Shown piece by piece: positions 2,229 to 55,095 of a DNA stretch of 64,000 nucleotides. A program made the translations under genes and the position numbers. The DNA is from Sandaracinaceae bacterium (GTDB lineage Bacteria > Myxococcota_A > Polyangia > Polyangiales > JAFGIB01): NCBI GenBank assembly GCA_017881055.1, contig JADGRF010000013.1, positions 75,201 to 139,200 of the forward strand, given 5' to 3'. Every line of letters starts with the position of its first letter. Positions within the stretch are counted from its first letter, which is position 1. The notes under the pieces are model-generated. The model saw only the letters and a program-made list of their open reading frames with translations. It was not told the DNA's origin and ran no database searches.

Positions 2229-2861
2229 ATGCAGATATTTCCGCGTTCTCTCAACTACCTGCCGCTGGCAGCTGCTGCCGGCATCGCGGTCCTAGGCGGC
2301 GCTGTGACCTTCGGTATCTGGTACTATCTCTCGCCTCGGAATCTCCAGGTGGGGTACGCGCCGGAGCAGCCGGTTCACTACAGCCACAAGTTGCATGCCG
2401 GAGATCTCGGCATCGATTGTCGCTACTGCCACGCGAATATCGAGCGCTCGCAAGAAGCGATGATTCCGCCGACGCAGGCGTGTATGGGCTGCCACGCGAT
2501 CGTGAAGAGCGACTCGCCGAAGCTCGCCGCGCTGCGCGCCAGCTGGTCGAGTGGCAAGCCGATGGAGTGGGTGCGCGTGCACCGCTTGCCCGACTACGTC
2601 TACTTCGATCACAGCGTGCATCTCGCCGCGGGTGTCGGTTGCGTCTCGTGCCACGGCCGGATCGACACGATGGAAGTCGTTCGTCAGGACCAGCCGCTCA
2701 ACATGGCGTGGTGCTTGGAATGCCACCGCAATCCTGGGCCGAACCTGCGCCCCAAGGATCAGATCACCAACATGACCTGGAAGGCCTCGCCTGAAGAGGC
2801 CGAGAAGTTCGCGCAAGCGGATCTGCGTGGACCGCAACATTGTTCGGGGTGCCACCGATGA
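2229..2861 (+). CDS. actA: Alternative complex III pentaheme cytochrome c subunit ActA
   Basis: N-terminal TM helix; five CxxCH motifs (CRYCH, CMGCH, CVSCH, CLECH, CSGCH); QPVHYSHKLH motif; operon context. Confidence 0.93.
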   Translation: MQIFPRSLNYLPLAAAAGIAVLGGAVTFGIWYYLSPRNLQVGYAPEQPVHYSHKLHAGDLGIDCRYCHANIERSQEAMIPPTQACMGCHAIVKSDSPKLAALRASWSSGKPMEWVRVHRLPDYVYFDHSVHLAAGVGCVSCHGRIDTMEVVRQDQPLNMAWCLECHRNPGPNLRPKDQITNMTWKASPEEAEKFAQADLRGPQHCSGCHR

Positions 2862-5800
2862 GTACTTCAGGCGAAGAGAAGTTTGACAAGGGTGGAGAGC
2901 AGCCTTCGGCTCTCTCCACGAGCAAGCGCGTGTTCTGGCGCAGCTTGGAGCAGAAGCAGGATCCGTCGTACGGCGCCGAAGACAACTCCGGCTCCGATGT
3001 CGTGAAGCAGACGATCGCGGGCGATGAGCTTTTCAAGCTTCGTCGTCGCAACTTCCTCACGTTGAGCGGCGCGATGACGGCGCTCGCCGGCGTCGAGGGC
3101 TGCATCCGTCGGCCGGTCGAAAATATCATGCCGTACACCGACATGCCGGAGTACGTGAACCCCGGCGTGCCGCTGCACTACGCCACGGTCATGAACCGCA
3201 ATGGCGCTGCGCTCGGCCTGGTCGTGACGGCGCACGAAGGTCGCCCGACCAAGATCGAAGGCAACCCGGACCATCCGGCGAGCTTGGGCAGCACCGATCT
3301 GATCGCGCAGGCGTCGATCTTGGACCTGTACGATCCGGAGCGCGTGCAGAAGCCGCTCGCGAGCAAGGTGAGCTCGACGTTCGCGGACTTCGACGCGTTC
3401 TTGACCGGCAAGCTCGGGGAGCTGTCGAAGAAGCAGGGCGCGGGCCTGCGCGTGCTCGCGCAGCCGAGCAATTCGCCGAGCTTTCTGCGTATGCGCAAGG
3501 CGCTGTTGGCGAAGCTGCCGCAGGCACGTGTGCACACGTACGCGCCCGTGAACCAGAGCAACGCGCGCCTCGGCGCGAAGATCGCGTTCGGTCGCAGCGT
3601 TGCAACTGTCAACGACTTCACGGCTGCGCGCGTGGTGCTCTCGCTCGACTCGGACTTCCTGATGACGGAAGCCGGCAGCGTGCTCGCGTCGCGTCAGTTT
3701 GCGCAGGCGCGCAACCTGGACTCCGCCGCGGGCGACATGAATCGTCTGTACGTGGTGGAGCCGGCGCTCTCGGTGACGGGCAGCAACGCCGATCACCGTC
3801 TGCGCGTCGCGGCGCAGGACGTCGTGCGTTACACGCGCGCGCTGGCTGCAGAGCTCGCGACACAGGGCATCGAGCTTGGCAATGCCGTCGGTGCCGTGCG
3901 CGGTGCGTCGAGCGAGGGCATTCCGGACACGTGGATCAAGGCCGTCGCGAAGGATCTCGTATCGAGCCGCGGCGCGGTGTTGATCGTCGCGGGCTCACGC
4001 CAGCCGCCCGAGCTGCACGCCCTGGTGAGCTTGCTCAATCGCGCGCTAGGCGCGTCGGGCCGCACGGTCACGTACGTCGAGCCGCTCGATGCAGATGACG
4101 GCGACAACTTCGCCGACGTGCGCGCGCTCAGTGACGACATGGCGGCCGGTAAGGTCGACACGCTCGTGATCCTCGGTGGCAACCCGGTGCTCGACGCGCC
4201 GGCCGATCTGAAGTTCGGTGCCGCGCTCAGCAAGGTGCCGACGAGCATTGCGTGTTCCACGTACCCGGACGAGACGGCGGACGCATGTTCGTGGGTCGTG
4301 CCGCTCGCGCACGAGCTCGAGACCTGGGGCGATCAGCAGACGGCGTTCGGACACTACGCGGTTCAGCAGCCGCTGCTCGCACCGCTCTGGGGCGGACGCA
4401 GCGAGCTCGAGCTGCTCGGTCAGCTCGCGAGCGAGCCGGCCTGGCGCGGTCACGAGGTCGTGAGTGCGACCGCCGAAGAGCACGGCATCAAAGGCGAGAT
4501 CGCGTGGCGTACGTTGCTCCACCGCGGTGTGGCCGACACGACGTTCGCGACGGTGCTCGGCGCGCTCTCGGTCGATGACCGTGCGGTAGCGCAAGCCCTG
4601 CAGAAGGCGGGCGATGCGCCTGCGCTCGGCAAGGGCAACCTCGAGGTCGTGTTCGCGCCTGACAACAAGCTGTTCGACGGCCGGCACGCCAACAACAACT
4701 GGCTGCTCGAGCTGCCGGATCCGATCACGCGCATCACGTGGGACAACGTGGCGATGATCGCGCCGACGACCGCGCGCGAGCTCGGCCTCAAGGCGGGCGA
4801 CATGATTCGCCTGACGCGTGGCGATGCGTCGATCGACATCGCGGCCTGGCCGCAGCCCGGCATCGCCAACAACACCGTGTCGCTCTCGCTCGGCTGGGGT
4901 CGTAAGCGTGCCGGCAAGAACGGCAACGGCTGCGGCTTCGACGTGTACCCGCTGCGCTCCAGCACGGCGCCGGGCTTCACGGCCGGTGTGTCGCTGAGCA
5001 AGCTCGACAAGAAGTACAAGATCTCGCAGACGCAGGATCACGATCAGATGCGCGACACGCGCGTCGAGAAAGAAAACCGCCCCCTCGCGCTCGACGCGAC
5101 GCTCGCGCAGTACAAAGCGAGGCCGAACTTCGCCGAGTACAAGTCGCCGGATCCCGAAGGCGGTCCGCTCTGGATCGGTCAGGACTATACCAAGGGCCAG
5201 CAGTGGGGCATGGTGGTCGACCTCAACACGTGCACCGGCTGCAACACGTGCGTGATCGCGTGTCAGTCGGAGAACAACGTGCCGGTCGTCGGCAAGGAGC
5301 AAGTCGCTCGCGGCCGCGAGATGCACTGGTTCCGCATCGACCGCTACTACGTCGGCGAGAACGAAGACGAGCCGGAGGTGGCGTTCCAGCCGCTTGGCTG
5401 CCAGCACTGCGAGAACGCGCCGTGCGAGAACGTGTGCCCGGTCGCGGCGACGTCGCACAGCCCCGAGGGCTTGAACGACATCGCGTACAACCGCTGCATC
5501 GGCACGCGCTACTGCATGAACAACTGTCCGTACAAAGTGCGCCGCTTCAACTTCTTGAACTTCAATCTCGACATCCCCGAGACGAAGCAGATGCAGTTCA
5601 ACCCGAACGTCACCGTCCGGTTTCGCGGCGTGATCGAAAAGTGCAGCTACTGCGTGCAGCGCATCCAGGGTGCGAAGATCGTGGCGAAGCAGCAGGGCCG
5701 TCGCGAGATCAAAGAAGGCGACCTGAAGTCCGCGTGCCAGCAGGCCTGTCCCGCCCACGCGATCGCGTTCGGCGATTTGAACGACGCCAGCAGCGAAGTC

Positions 5801-5910
5801 GCTCGTTGGTACAAGCGCGATCGTAACTACGCGTTGCTAGCGGACATCGGTACGCGCCCGCGCACGCGGTTCCTGGGCAAAGTTCGCAATCCGAACCCGG
5901 AGATGAAGTC

Positions 5911-5914
<4 letters not shown>
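2858..5914 (+). CDS. actB: Alternative complex III subunit ActB (molybdopterin-oxidoreductase-like domain fused to a Fe-S domain)
   Basis: ATG 2858 overlaps the actA stop (ATGA); WRSLE motif, Tat signal [17 protein letters not shown]-terminal CTGCNTC / CQHCENAPC / CIGTRYC Fe-S motifs. Confidence 0.95.
2892..2919 (+). repeat. Palindromic element (family 1) in frame within the actB 5' end
   Basis: GTGGAGAG-C-AGCC-TTC-GGCT-CTCTCCAC, perfect outer stem; encodes GEQPSALST. Confidence 0.8.
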
Positions 5915-7344
<1,430 letters not shown>

Positions 7345-22091: not shown

Positions 22092-22541
22092 GTCGGAGCG
22101 GACCAGGTGATCGTCGGCTTCTTTAACTGTCCCGAGCTTCGGTTCGGGGGAAGAAAGAGCGGGAGGAAAGTCCGAGCTCCAAAGGACAGAATGCCGGTTA
22201 ATGGCCGGTGGGGGCGACCCCGAGGAAAGTGCCACAGAGAATGAACCGCCTTGGCCAATCACATACCCACCGAGCAGCCTTCGGCTCTCGGCGGACTACG
22301 GGGTTGCACAAGGTAAGGGTGAAAAGGCGAGGTAAGAGCTCACCGGGTCGGCGGTAACGTCGATCGCTAGGCAAACCCCATTCGGAGCAAGACGAAATAG
22401 GGAGGCGTTCGAGGGCGGTCCGCCCGAGCCTCCGGGTAGCGTCGCTCGAGGCGTGCGGTAACGCGCGTCCTAGATGAATGATCACCACCCGCATCCCGGC
22501 AACGGGTGCGGGAACAGGACTCGGCTTACGGTCCCTCCGAC
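22092..22541 (+). ncRNA. rnpB: RNase P RNA (type A), about 450 nt with extended P3 and P12
   Basis: GAGGAAAGTCCG, GGAAAGTGCCACAGA, GGTAAGGGTGAAA, GGCAAACCCC..GAGCAAG, ACAGGACTCGGCTTAC; ends pair (GTCGGAG/CTCCGAC). Confidence 0.96.
22261..22294 (+). repeat. Palindromic element (family 1) inside RNase P RNA P12
   Basis: ACATAC-CCACCGAG-C-AGCC-TTC-GGCT-CTCGGCGG. Confidence 0.8.
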
Positions 22542-22543
22542 CT

Positions 22544-22575
22544 CGAAACCTCGTGCCTCCGGGCACGGGGTTTCG
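22544..22575 (+). terminator. Hairpin terminator after rnpB
   Basis: CGAAACCTCGTGCC-TCCG-GGCACGGGGTTTCG; weak T-tract. Confidence 0.55.
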
Positions 22576-22590
22576 TGCTTTCATGCGGTC

Positions 22591-45246: not shown

Positions 45247-46986
45247 ATGTGCAGAAACCGAACACGTTGGTCGCTACTGACATACCCGCAGAGCAGCCGC
45301 TGGCTCTCTGCGGCGGTGACATACCCGCAGAGCAGCCGCTGGCTTTCTGCGGCGGTGACATACGCCGCACTGGCGCTCGTGGGCATTTCCGCGCCGGCCT
45401 TTGCGCAAGACATGCAGTTCGGCGTCGAGGAAACCGGCGCCGCGCCTTCGGGTCCGCCGGGTGAGGGCCCGCCCTCCGAGGCGCTCGCGAACGCGCTGCG
45501 TCTCTACACGCAGGAGCGCTATCCCGAGGCCTCGGTGCAGTTCCAGCGCGTAGTCGAAGGCGAAACGCCCGACGCGCCTGCCAACGTGCAGAAGTCGCAG
45601 TTCTTCTTGGGCAAGTGTCTCTACCATTTACACTACTACCAGTCGGCGCTCGCGGTGTTCGACGAGATCTCGGAGCAGGGCCGCAAGCATGTGTTCTTCG
45701 ATCAAACGCTGCAGTGGCTCGCGCAGCTAGCGTCGCAGCTGCCAGAGCCCGCAGGCATCATCGACAAGATTGGCCGCTTCGGTGTCGATCAGCTCGAGCA
45801 GTTCAACACGGCAGACAACGCCGATCTGTACAACCAGCTGCTGTATTTGATGGGTCGCTCGAAGTACAACCAGGGCGAGTTCGACAAGGCGATCGAGCTG
45901 TTCGAGAAGATCGACAAGCGTAACAAGTGGTACATCAAGGGCCGCTTCTTCGAGGGCATCTCGTACATCCGTATGCGCAAGGCGCAGCCGGCTGCCACGG
46001 CGTTCCGTTCGATCATCGATGCGATCGACGACGGTGACGTCGATGGCGTGGACGATGCAGAGCGCATGCGCGACCTCGGCTGGATCTCGCTCGCTCGCGT
46101 CTATTACACGGCGGCGAACAAGACGACGCCCGAGGGCGAGCGCAAGGTCGACGGCGTGTTACTCGGCAACGCGGTCGAGGCCTGGACGAAGATCGACAAC
46201 GACAGCGAGTACTGGCTGGACTCGCTGTTCGAAGCTTCGTGGGCCTTCTTCCTCGCGGACGAATACTCGCGTGCGCTTGGCAACGTGCACACGTTGAACT
46301 CACCGTACTTCAAGGGCTCGTTCTATCCGGAAGCGACCGTGCTCAAGGCCGTGGTCTTCTTCTCGAACTGCCAGATGAAGAACGCGACCGCGACGATCCA
46401 GTACTTCCATGAGCACTACGATCCGGTGAAGACGAAGCTCGACGAGATGCTCGCCAAATACAAAGACAACGCGCAGTTCTTCGAATTCTTGAAGAAAGTG
46501 CGTTCCGGCGATGCGAACTTGCCGCAGGAAGTGCGCGGCATCGTCACGTCGGCGCTGTCGGATCGTTCGGTGCTCGCGAACCTCGAGTACGTGACGTTGC
46601 TCGAGCAGGAAGAGAAGACGCTCAGCAAGTCGCCGTCGCAGTTCTCCAGCTCGTCGCTGGGCGCGCGCATCTTGCAGGACATCCTGGTCGCGAAGTCGTT
46701 CGCGGTCGACCAGGCCGGTGACACGGCCAAGGCTCGCTACAACCGCTTGATCGACGAGATGCAGGATCTCGCGAACCAGGCGGATACGGTCGAGATCGAA
46801 ATCCTCAACTACGAGCGTGGCGAGATGAAAGCCTCGCTCGCGGAATCGCAAGCTGCTGCCGGTCAGTCGACCGGTGGCAAGGTCTTCGTCTCCTCGGAGC
46901 ACAACGTTTGGCCGTTCAACGGCGAATATTGGCGCGACGAGCTCGGCTACTACCGTCAGGAAGTCACTTACCAGTGCAGAAGGTAA
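45247..46986 (+). CDS. gltC: Adventurous gliding motility TPR protein GltC
   Basis: GGAG RBS; signal peptide (lengthened by a repeat insertion); TPRs; C-terminal WPFNGEYWRDELGYY; context. Confidence 0.72.
   Translation: MCRNRTRWSLLTYPQSSRWLSAAVTYPQSSRWLSAAVTYAALALVGISAPAFAQDMQFGVEETGAAPSGPPGEGPPSEALANALRLYTQERYPEASVQFQRVVEGETPDAPANVQKSQFFLGKCLYHLHYYQSALAVFDEISEQGRKHVFFDQTLQWLAQLASQLPEPAGIIDKIGRFGVDQLEQFNTADNADLYNQLLYLMGRSKYNQGEFDKAIELFEKIDKRNKWYIKGRFFEGISYIRMRKAQPAATAFRSIIDAIDDGDVDGVDDAERMRDLGWISLARVYYTAANKTTPEGERKVDGVLLGNAVEAWTKIDNDSEYWLDSLFEASWAFFLADEYSRALGNVHTLNSPYFKGSFYPEATVLKAVVFFSNCQMKNATATIQYFHEHYDPVKTKLDEMLAKYKDNAQFFEFLKKVRSGDANLPQEVRGIVTSALSDRSVLANLEYVTLLEQEEKTLSKSPSQFSSSSLGARILQDILVAKSFAVDQAGDTAKARYNRLIDEMQDLANQADTVEIEILNYERGEMKASLAESQAAAGQSTGGKVFVSSEHNVWPFNGEYWRDELGYYRQEVTYQCRR
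45279..45363 (+). repeat. Two tandem 39-nt palindromic elements (family 1) plus a terminal GACATAC, in frame in the gltC signal peptide
   Basis: GACATACCCGCAGAGCAGCCGCTGGCTYTCTGCGGCGGT x2, then GACATAC; encodes TYPQSSRWLSAAV x2. Confidence 0.9.
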
Positions 46987-54969: not shown

Positions 54970-54976
54970 TGTTTTC

Positions 54977-55070
54977 ACATACCCACGAAGCAGCCTTCGG
55001 ATCTTCCTTCGGCTCTTCGCGGGTGACATGCCCGCGAAGTAGCCTTCGGTTTTTCCTTCGGCTCTTCGCG
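54977..55070 (+). repeat. Two tandem 49-nt palindromic elements (family 1, extended loop) just after the gltG stop
   Basis: ACATRCCCRCGAAG-YAGCC-TTCGGWTYTTCCTTC-GGCT-CTTCGCG x2. Confidence 0.88.
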
Positions 55071-55095
55071 TAGGGAGTGTCCGTGTCTGACAATC

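Follow-up and report, generated by a model that had tools for sequence, protein, structure and literature searches.

A dispersed hairpin repeat in the P12 loop of the RNase P RNA gene of an uncultured myxobacterial clade

Introduction

How does a copy of a dispersed repeat come to lie inside the gene of an essential ribozyme, and is it merely put up with there? The question is raised by rnpB, the gene for the RNA of ribonuclease P (RNase P), in a 64,000-nucleotide (nt) stretch of the genome of a Sandaracinaceae bacterium (assembly GCA_017881055.1, contig JADGRF010000013.1, positions 75,201 to 139,200). The whole stretch is referred to here as the window, and the genome that holds it as G000. 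An initial annotation of the window had proposed that a palindromic element, also present at two other places in it, extends the P12 helix of the RNase P RNA and is tolerated as an RNA hairpin. The comparisons presented here favor, at a probability of about 0.8, an ancestral insertion of a lineage-specific hairpin repeat into the P12 loop of rnpB, which has been tolerated and whose hairpin extends the helix.

An insertion in the P12 loop of a complete rnpB

The window contains a full-length type A RNase P RNA gene of 448 nt, which matches RF00010 (RNaseP_bact_a) from model position 1 to 367 with 286.8 bits (E 1e-92). The score exceeds the gathering score of 100 bits, the conserved core (P4, J3/4, the P10-P12 junction and P15) is aligned, and posterior probabilities are high outside the inserts; RF00010 is the sole Rfam family over threshold in the window. 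An RF00010 search found rnpB once in the G000 assembly, and likewise one rnpB per genome with its core intact. The protein gene rnpA is present in G000 on a separate contig from rnpB, so that a ribonucleoprotein enzyme is expected. Together, the single copy and the presence of rnpA offer indirect support for this RNA being the catalytically active RNase P RNA of the cell.

In the alignment to the RF00010 covariance model (CM), 45 inserted nt fall between model positions 136 and 137, inside the apical loop of P12, in agreement with the placement given by the initial annotation. A second insertion, of 26 nt, lies in the P3 loop and had been overlooked; it makes up one third of the extra length of the gene. 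The annotation was right that this rnpB is unusually long, at about 450 nt, but the length is due to P12 (+45 nt) and P3 (+26 nt) together and not to P12 alone. An 11-nt excess near the 3′ end of the gene, visible in the same alignment, is common to all relatives and not special.

Folding agrees with the CM placement. In both the minimum-energy and the centroid fold, G22248-G22253 pair with C22309-U22314 and C22256-C22260 with G22302-G22306; ACAUAC (22261-22266) and ACUACGG (22295-22301) make up an internal loop, and the hairpin of the element stands at the helix apex. The fold energy of P12 is -32.7 kcal/mol (z = -3.0 versus shuffles), and the basal P12 stem covaries among relatives. Within the element hairpin, 11 of the 12 pairs typical of the repeat family are formed; A22269 and C22292 are mismatched, C22275 bulges out, and the loop is UUC (22280-22282). 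The strings on which the initial annotation had built its P12 model were all located in the window at the positions it gave (Table 1). The unit is in sense orientation, as is usual for copies of the family, and no U-tract stands behind its hairpin in rnpB; transcription termination is thus not expected there.

Immediately 3′ of rnpB (window 22543-22585) lies a GC-rich hairpin, GAAACCUCGUGCC UCCG GGCACGGGGUUUC, followed by GUGCUUUC. It is probably the rnpB terminator or a 3′ processing signal; simple scans called no promoter or terminator around the gene, and the terminator scan made no call at this hairpin.

The insert belongs to a dispersed family

The G000 assembly (5.88 Mb, 341 contigs, 66% GC) was searched with a hidden Markov model (HMM) of the repeat, seeded with 80 strictly selected genomic copies that were chosen by exact matches to ACATACCC, CAGCC and GGCT. 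At E <= 0.01 there are 238 matches in 160 arrays, of which 103 are single and 41 double, with a maximum of five units. The unit of ~38 nt consists of a spacer ending T-N, the leader ACATACCC, and a GC hairpin of twelve pairs that has a single bulged C and closes in a loop of three bases. Across the 109 full-length matches, the leader and the four pairs nearest the loop hardly vary, an invariance partly built in by the choice of seed. Stem positions in the same matches are 94-99% paired, with compensatory alternation between GC, CG and AT (pair 15-34: GC 70, CG 26, AT 8; pair 16-33: GC 60, AT 35, CG 7), which argues that the stem is real. Adjacent units no more than 150 nt apart lie on the same strand in 80 cases and on opposite strands in none, at a period that is most often 39 nt. 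For 49 of the 109 copies an exact twin exists at another locus, indicating that the family has recently been active. Rfam holds no family for the unit, returning sub-threshold chance matches only.

The P12 insert is a confirmed member of this family and occupies the P12 apical loop. The copy at 22257-22296 matches the HMM over its full length (positions 1-40; nhmmer, 45.5 bits, genome-wide E 2.4e-11), ranking 43 among the 238 matches. Its 36-nt core is identical at 36/36 positions to a copy at C234:21390-21425, the flanks of which are unrelated to rnpB. This exact twin points to recent copying or gene conversion between the C234 locus and rnpB, in either direction. The same HMM recovers the units in the gltC-like open reading frame (ORF) and at 54975-55075, to which the initial annotation had likened the P12 element. 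For the 26-nt insert in P3, alignment to the consensus of a GCCGAG sub-family, with the apical four pairs lost (p ~0.0075 versus shuffles, four targets tried), suggests a probable collapsed relic of a unit.

The C234 twin, which sits behind a truncated unit, shares the rare A/C mismatch of the outer pair. In the units at 54975-55075 the loop region is internally duplicated (CCTTCGGATCTTCCTTCGGCT), which appears to reflect tandem copying of the hairpin tip within the unit.

The leader alone is not diagnostic of the family, since the bare 8-mer ACATACCC occurs 150 times genome-wide, against ~114 expected from base composition, and also in coding DNA. Four of its eight matches in the window belong to the family; the other four are coding and have no hairpin.

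Copies of the family keep a preferred position relative to genes. Coding strand and frame near arrays were called from the phase of GC content at third codon positions, as stop-to-stop ORFs are uninformative at 66% GC. Of the arrays classified in this way, 82 run in the same direction as the coding region upstream of them and 10 run against it, and in 53 of the 82 co-oriented arrays the upstream stop codon ends -20 to +5 nt from the unit start. Three of 45 tRNA genes have co-oriented units 1-7 nt past their 3′ end, and the tmRNA gene has none. The 56 stop codons within -20 to +60 nt of units (TGA 25, TAG 16, TAA 15) look TAA/TAG-rich for a 66% GC genome, and the T-R-R-T spacer of the unit may supply or overlap stop codons. 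The units behind the three tRNA genes would fall in pre-tRNA trailers, and the RNA of the processing enzyme bears the same unit.

The P12 unit in related genomes

A strict family pattern was scanned in 251 genomes of the order, the reversed control pattern giving zero matches everywhere. It was found 75 times in G000, 48 in G001, 16 in G004, 13 in G005 and 3 in G009; neither G002 and G003 nor any of the 244 further genomes sampled has it. Among these 251 genomes the family is confined to a four-species clade and one contig of G009. The latter genome belongs to a different genus, and its copies all lie in a single array of three units on contig C668, which may be mis-binned.

RF00010 was found in 38 of 41 relatives, and within the genus defined by GTDB the length of rnpB is 494 nt in G001, 457 in G005, 391 in G002 and 376 in G003. 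Strand-corrected alignments and CM alignments agree in placing the unit of G001 and G005 at the P12 position that it occupies in the window. A comparison of P12 among sister genomes thereby bears out the initial annotation: all three family-bearing members of the clade with an assembled rnpB have the P12 unit, and the insert is restricted to genomes that hold the family (G000, G001 and G005). The annotation would have been in difficulty had relatives lacking the family shown the same P12; G002, G003 and the other family-less relatives have short, unrelated P12 tips instead. No trace of the unit was seen in P12 or P3 of rnpB in G002, G003 and six other family-level relatives. P12 measures 26-46 nt in element-free relatives and 69-70 nt in carriers, and P3 19-25 nt and 52-98 nt, respectively. 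The degenerate ACTAC that the annotation had described behind the element is present in the window but has no counterpart in rnpB of G001 or G005, and is not established as a part of the element. No rnpB was detected in the fourth member, G004 (94% complete, 16 strict copies), where it may have been lost at an assembly break.

The P3 loop holds two units in G001 and one degenerate unit in G005. In G001 (rnpB locus L022) they form a 77-nt insert whose apical stem has changed compensatorily (CAGUC...GACU), and in G005 (L027) the leader of the P3 unit reads CAATACCC. In P12 of G005, the 3′ flank UGUGUG pairs with the leader CACAUA, turning the helix into a nearly continuous rod.

A wider scan covered 185,579 species representatives, with the genome of the window possibly outside it. 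The pattern matched 105 stretches; among the 80 loci checked, only those in G001 and G005 were rnpB with the pattern, and the others were due to chance. A scan of metagenomes of the Joint Genome Institute (JGI) gave one chance match, not in rnpB, and a scan of viral contigs gave none.

History of the insertion

The phylogeny was built from ActB (1024 aa, 2840-5914), a subunit of alternative complex III; rpoB is missing from the G000 and G001 assemblies. The tree is (G003,((G000,G001),(G004,G005))), with support of 99/98 for the four-genome clade, which consists of exactly the four genomes holding the family (the single contig of G009 aside). The rnpB core taken alone leaves G000, G001 and G005 unresolved. 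As G000, G001 and G005 span the root of the clade, a single ancestral insertion is most economical. A single event is further supported by two shared features: the P12 flanks outside the element are asymmetric in the same way in all three carriers (9-11 nt 5′ of it and 18-20 nt 3′ of it), and G001 and G005 have in common the derived P3 leader CAATACC.

Other copies behave differently from that in rnpB. The window is collinear with contig C135 of G005 throughout, at 68-87% nucleotide identity, and in 80 kb of that contig the family has two matches, both inside rnpB. There is no counterpart of the gltC units at the orthologous site in G005, and no element match opposite 54975-55075. With the rnpB position shared and the other copies unshared, it follows that most copies turn over.

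The conservation of the P12 unit itself is a puzzle. The units of G001 and G005 are identical at 36/36 positions, and each matches that of G000 at 33/36; the three differences of G000 are a compensatory C-G/G-C swap (two bases) and a G-to-A change that opens the outer pair. For comparison, identity is 66-77% in the rnpB columns that vary among the eight element-free relatives and 32-48% in the P12 flanks; proteins encoded nearby are 55-74% identical across species (55-59% for the neighboring protein set beside the unit comparison). At the rates of the variable columns, the binomial probability of 36/36 is ~8e-5 and that of at least 33/36 ~6e-4.

A probable tolerated ancestral insertion and its alternatives

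The favored course of events begins with a non-coding copy of the repeat entering the DNA that encodes the P12 apical loop of rnpB, most probably once, in the ancestor shared by four species of uncultured Polyangiales/Sandaracinaceae-like myxobacteria that form a clade. Once transcribed, the hairpin of the unit would stack on the native P12 stems and lengthen P12 from roughly 8-14 bp to ~22 bp. In structures of the bacterial holoenzyme, P12 and P3 point into the solvent with their distal ends. With the extension at the solvent-exposed tip of a variable helix, the ribozyme would tolerate it and the gene would stay functional; the same family would also have entered the P3 loop, a second variable helix tip. 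The P12 literature points in the same direction, as P12 is described in a passage of PMC2858038 (citing Vioque 1997) as having no universally conserved nucleotides and being sometimes dispensable, which would explain why an extension is tolerated. Tolerance in an essential gene, as claimed by the initial annotation, is supported by the sequence record: the single rnpB has an intact core, rnpA is present, and the unit has been retained across diverged species. On this account the hairpin would persist in the mature RNA and be nearly neutral for the ribozyme, and the unit would have arrived by insertion of one copy at the DNA level.

Several observations weigh against this account. No mobilizing enzyme was found: G000 and G004 have no Y1 transposase, and that of G005 is not flanked by units. 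The P3 insert of G000 is not matched by the family HMM. A neutral passenger is expected to decay, yet the unit is far better kept than the P12 flanks, although gene conversion, expansion and contraction of arrays, or re-insertion can explain a pristine unit. The unit of G001 and G005 is also the commonest family 34-mer in G000, so that independent or renewed insertion is possible. Finally, the expanded P12 of Thermodesulfatator indicus is excised, which speaks against a retained hairpin (PMC9945441).

The last point leads to the proposal that the P12 unit is transcribed and then cut out, the working RNA consisting of two fragments held together by the remaining fold. T. indicus provides a precedent, its ~70-nt P12 expansion being excised both in vivo and in Escherichia coli (PMC9945441), and the extended P12 of the window is likewise a long, mostly paired rod with internal loops. 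Its longest uninterrupted duplex, however, is ~5 bp, which is short for RNase III; this enzyme prefers a duplex of roughly 20 bp. A U-rich single-stranded stretch like that of the T. indicus cleavage region is missing, and excision leaves the conservation of the leader unexplained, so that this fate seems quite improbable for the RNA of the window. Alternatively, selection may maintain the unit as a module with a function of its own, such as binding a protein or RNA that recognizes every copy of the family; RNase P RNA would then be linked to the role of the family at the 3′ ends of genes and tRNAs. The unit is 33-36/36 identical in three species, unpaired leader included, against 32-48% for the flanks and 66-77% for the variable columns; the remaining copies in the 64-kb syntenic block are not common to G005; and the family is co-oriented with the upstream gene (82:10), abutting stop codons and tRNA 3′ ends. 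Such selection would nevertheless be unlikely, given that the P3 copies decay, that no partner protein is known, and that renewal by copying or gene conversion, to which the exact twin of the G000 unit and the 49 of 109 twinned copies testify, explains the freshness of the unit without selection.

A further alternative would make the three P12 units and the P3 units independent recent insertions, with rnpB as a recurrent hotspot for a family that targets hairpin loops or specifically this site. The match of the G001 and G005 units to the commonest sequence of the family fits this scenario, as do the different stem sub-type and exact twin of the G000 unit, the recent activity and turnover of the family at other loci, and the fact that two separate loops of one gene were hit. 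It would nonetheless need three or more insertions at an identical position, all with flanks of the same asymmetry, in a genome where arrays number only ~160; the 3′ flanks of G001 and G005 are alignable, their P3 leaders have the derived CAATACC in common, and the rnpB sub-type GCGGAG is rare among the copies of G001. Repeated targeting is unlikely, to about the same degree as the selected module. A chance or convergent GC-rich P12 hairpin, or a mis-assembly joining two halves of rnpB across a repeat, has been effectively refuted. P12 tips are often GC hairpins, and metagenome-assembled genomes (MAGs) break at repeats, 13 of the 160 arrays here lying within 100 nt of a contig end. Against coincidence stand the 45.5 bits (E 2.4e-11) of a match that includes the unpaired 8-nt leader, and the 36/36 twin. 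Both flanks build the cognate P12 stem and complete a full-length rnpB, and the same architecture recurs in three independently assembled MAGs from separate deposits (G001, JADGRG01 Chersky_785; G005, DASVHQ01 SMAG_U2971; and the genome of the window), which rules out mis-assembly.

Beside the tolerated ancestral insertion, a more active part for the P12 unit in the biology of its family may tentatively be considered, either as a selected docking site or as a "safe-harbour master copy" in rnpB that is refreshed as donor or recipient. Either version would explain why this is the only shared copy in a 64-80 kb syntenic block, why it lies within 3 nt of the family consensus despite diverged flanks, and why it has an exact twin. 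This proposal is rather unlikely.

Comparison with known systems

The closest precedent is the insertion of short, repetitive elements repeated in tandem (STRR sequences) in rnpB of heterocystous cyanobacteria, said to have been described by Vioque in 1997 and reportedly located in P12. There, as here, a genome-wide repeat lies inside rnpB and is reported to lengthen P12 while the gene stays functional. The window shows a genome-wide repeat in the distal P12 of an otherwise intact rnpB, but not a heptanucleotide array: STRR sequences are heptanucleotide tandem repeats, whereas the insert is a single 36-38-nt unit with leader and bulged hairpin. It further differs in its host phylum (Myxococcota), in the additional entry into P3, and in the unusual conservation of the unit between species. 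In T. indicus, the P12 segment of ~70 nt that is excised post-transcriptionally is absent from the closest relative (PMC9945441, RNA 2023). Like the present insert, it adds lineage-specific sequence to the tip of P12 in a type A RNase P RNA, but it is not described as belonging to a dispersed repeat family (PMC9945441). The insertion is thus a known kind of tolerated P12 insertion and no new principle, with P12 precedents from 1997 and 2023; new are the type of repeat, the phylum, the involvement of two helices and the retention across species.

Intervening sequences (IVSs) at helix tips of 23S and 16S rRNA typically measure ~100 nt or more, and RNase III cuts them out, leaving fragmented rRNA. 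They too place an extra hairpin in a loop at the periphery of an essential, structured RNA and occur patchily among relatives, but the present unit has 36 nt and short stems and resides in RNase P RNA.

In form, the family is similar to repetitive extragenic palindromes (REPs) and their compound forms, bacterial interspersed mosaic elements (BIMEs) and REP doublets forming hairpins (REPINs): short GC-rich palindromes with a conserved single-stranded 5′ motif, compensatory stems and hundreds of mostly extragenic copies. The unit is an imperfect palindrome with a conserved 5′ motif (conserved partly by seed choice) and a covarying stem. Unlike REPINs and BIMEs, however, its units are always direct (80:0) and never form inverted doublets, and they are strongly co-oriented with genes. 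A link to REP-associated tyrosine transposases (RAYTs) was rejected: PF01797 is absent from G000 and G004 (as far as assemblies 86-94% complete allow), and the match in G005 and weak matches in G001 have no flanking units. The family is thus REP-like but fails two defining features of the REPIN/RAYT system. The match in G005, found only there (G005:C142:7911-8264, L171), is a good Y1 transposase (PF01797, 122 bits, 162-aa frame); the ~1 kb on either side of it contains no family unit, and it is probably an unrelated IS200-type element. Miniature inverted-repeat transposable elements (MITEs) have terminal inverted repeats and a target-site duplication. The unit, by comparison, consists of a single hairpin and its asymmetric leader; the block shared with its twin runs TC...GCGG between unrelated flanks, and no duplication is evident from this comparison. 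A search of the literature on REP or MITE elements in rnpB or in myxobacteria returned nothing relevant.

Features of the window

Coordinates of the extended P12, of rnpB and of the family copies are collected in Table 1, together with the operon that supplied the tree marker.

Table 1. Features of the window and family units at tRNA genes (window positions unless a contig is named)
Feature	Position	Strand	Basis or remark
rnpB, type A RNase P RNA gene, 448 nt	22095-22542	+	RF00010 match
P3-loop insertion, 26 nt, hairpin at 22130-22149; possible collapsed unit relic	22125-22150	+	CM insertion
Entire lengthened P12 (69 nt, CCGCC to GGU), ~22 bp interrupted by internal loops	22248-22314	+	Folds, CM alignment
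Native P12 stems, 5′ strand (GCCUUG, then CCAAUC)	22248-22260	+	Pairs with 22302-22314, minimum-energy and centroid folds
Native P12 stems, 3′ strand (GGUUG, CA, CAAGGU)	22302-22314	+	Folds
Repeat unit, 36 nt (TC + leader ACATACCC + bulged 12-bp hairpin), sense	22259-22294	+	nhmmer, twin, sister P12 units
Leader ACATACCC; ACAUAC in internal loop, last two C pair with G22293 and G22294	22261-22268	+	Fold
Element hairpin	22267-22294	+	Folds; family-wide stem covariation
3′ linker ACUACGG, unpaired, contains ACTAC (22295-22299)	22295-22301	+	Fold; not conserved in G001 or G005
GAACCGCC	22243-22250		String located in window
CCTTGGCCAATC	22249-22260		String located in window
ACCGAGCAGCCTTCGGCTCTCGGCGG	22269-22294		String located in window
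GGTTGCACAAGG	22302-22313		String located in window
GGTAAGGGTGAAA	22312-22324		String located in window
Two tandem family units (33.9 and 33.3 bits) inside gltC-like ORF	45278-45355	+	HMM
Two variant family units, duplicated loop segment, downstream of ORF	54975-55075	+	HMM
Non-family ACATACCC matches	7125, 11847, 14525, 20016	-	Coding-looking sequence, without hairpin
ActB-like molybdopterin/FeS protein (1024 aa) and NrfD/ActC-like membrane protein, part of alternative complex III operon	2840-7344		
tRNA-flanking units: His-GTG, Ser-GGA, Leu-CAA	G000 C273:17574-17726, C228:18877-19043, C51:19141-19262	co-oriented	

Implications

The rnpB of these myxobacteria extends the STRR precedent to Myxococcota and to a REP-like repeat. 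The strong conservation of the unit raises the question of whether selection or ongoing copying keeps it; if the docking version of an active unit were true, it would imply a factor recognizing the leader and hairpin at the 3′ ends of genes and tRNAs. The loops that were entered mark out where type A RNase P RNA naturally permits insertions, and the insertion illustrates one concrete route by which helices of structured RNAs may be lengthened ("expansion segments"). As the comparative controls show, a hairpin repeat of small size, selfish or structural, can become established in both P12 and P3, two loops at the periphery of an essential ribozyme, and outlast speciation.

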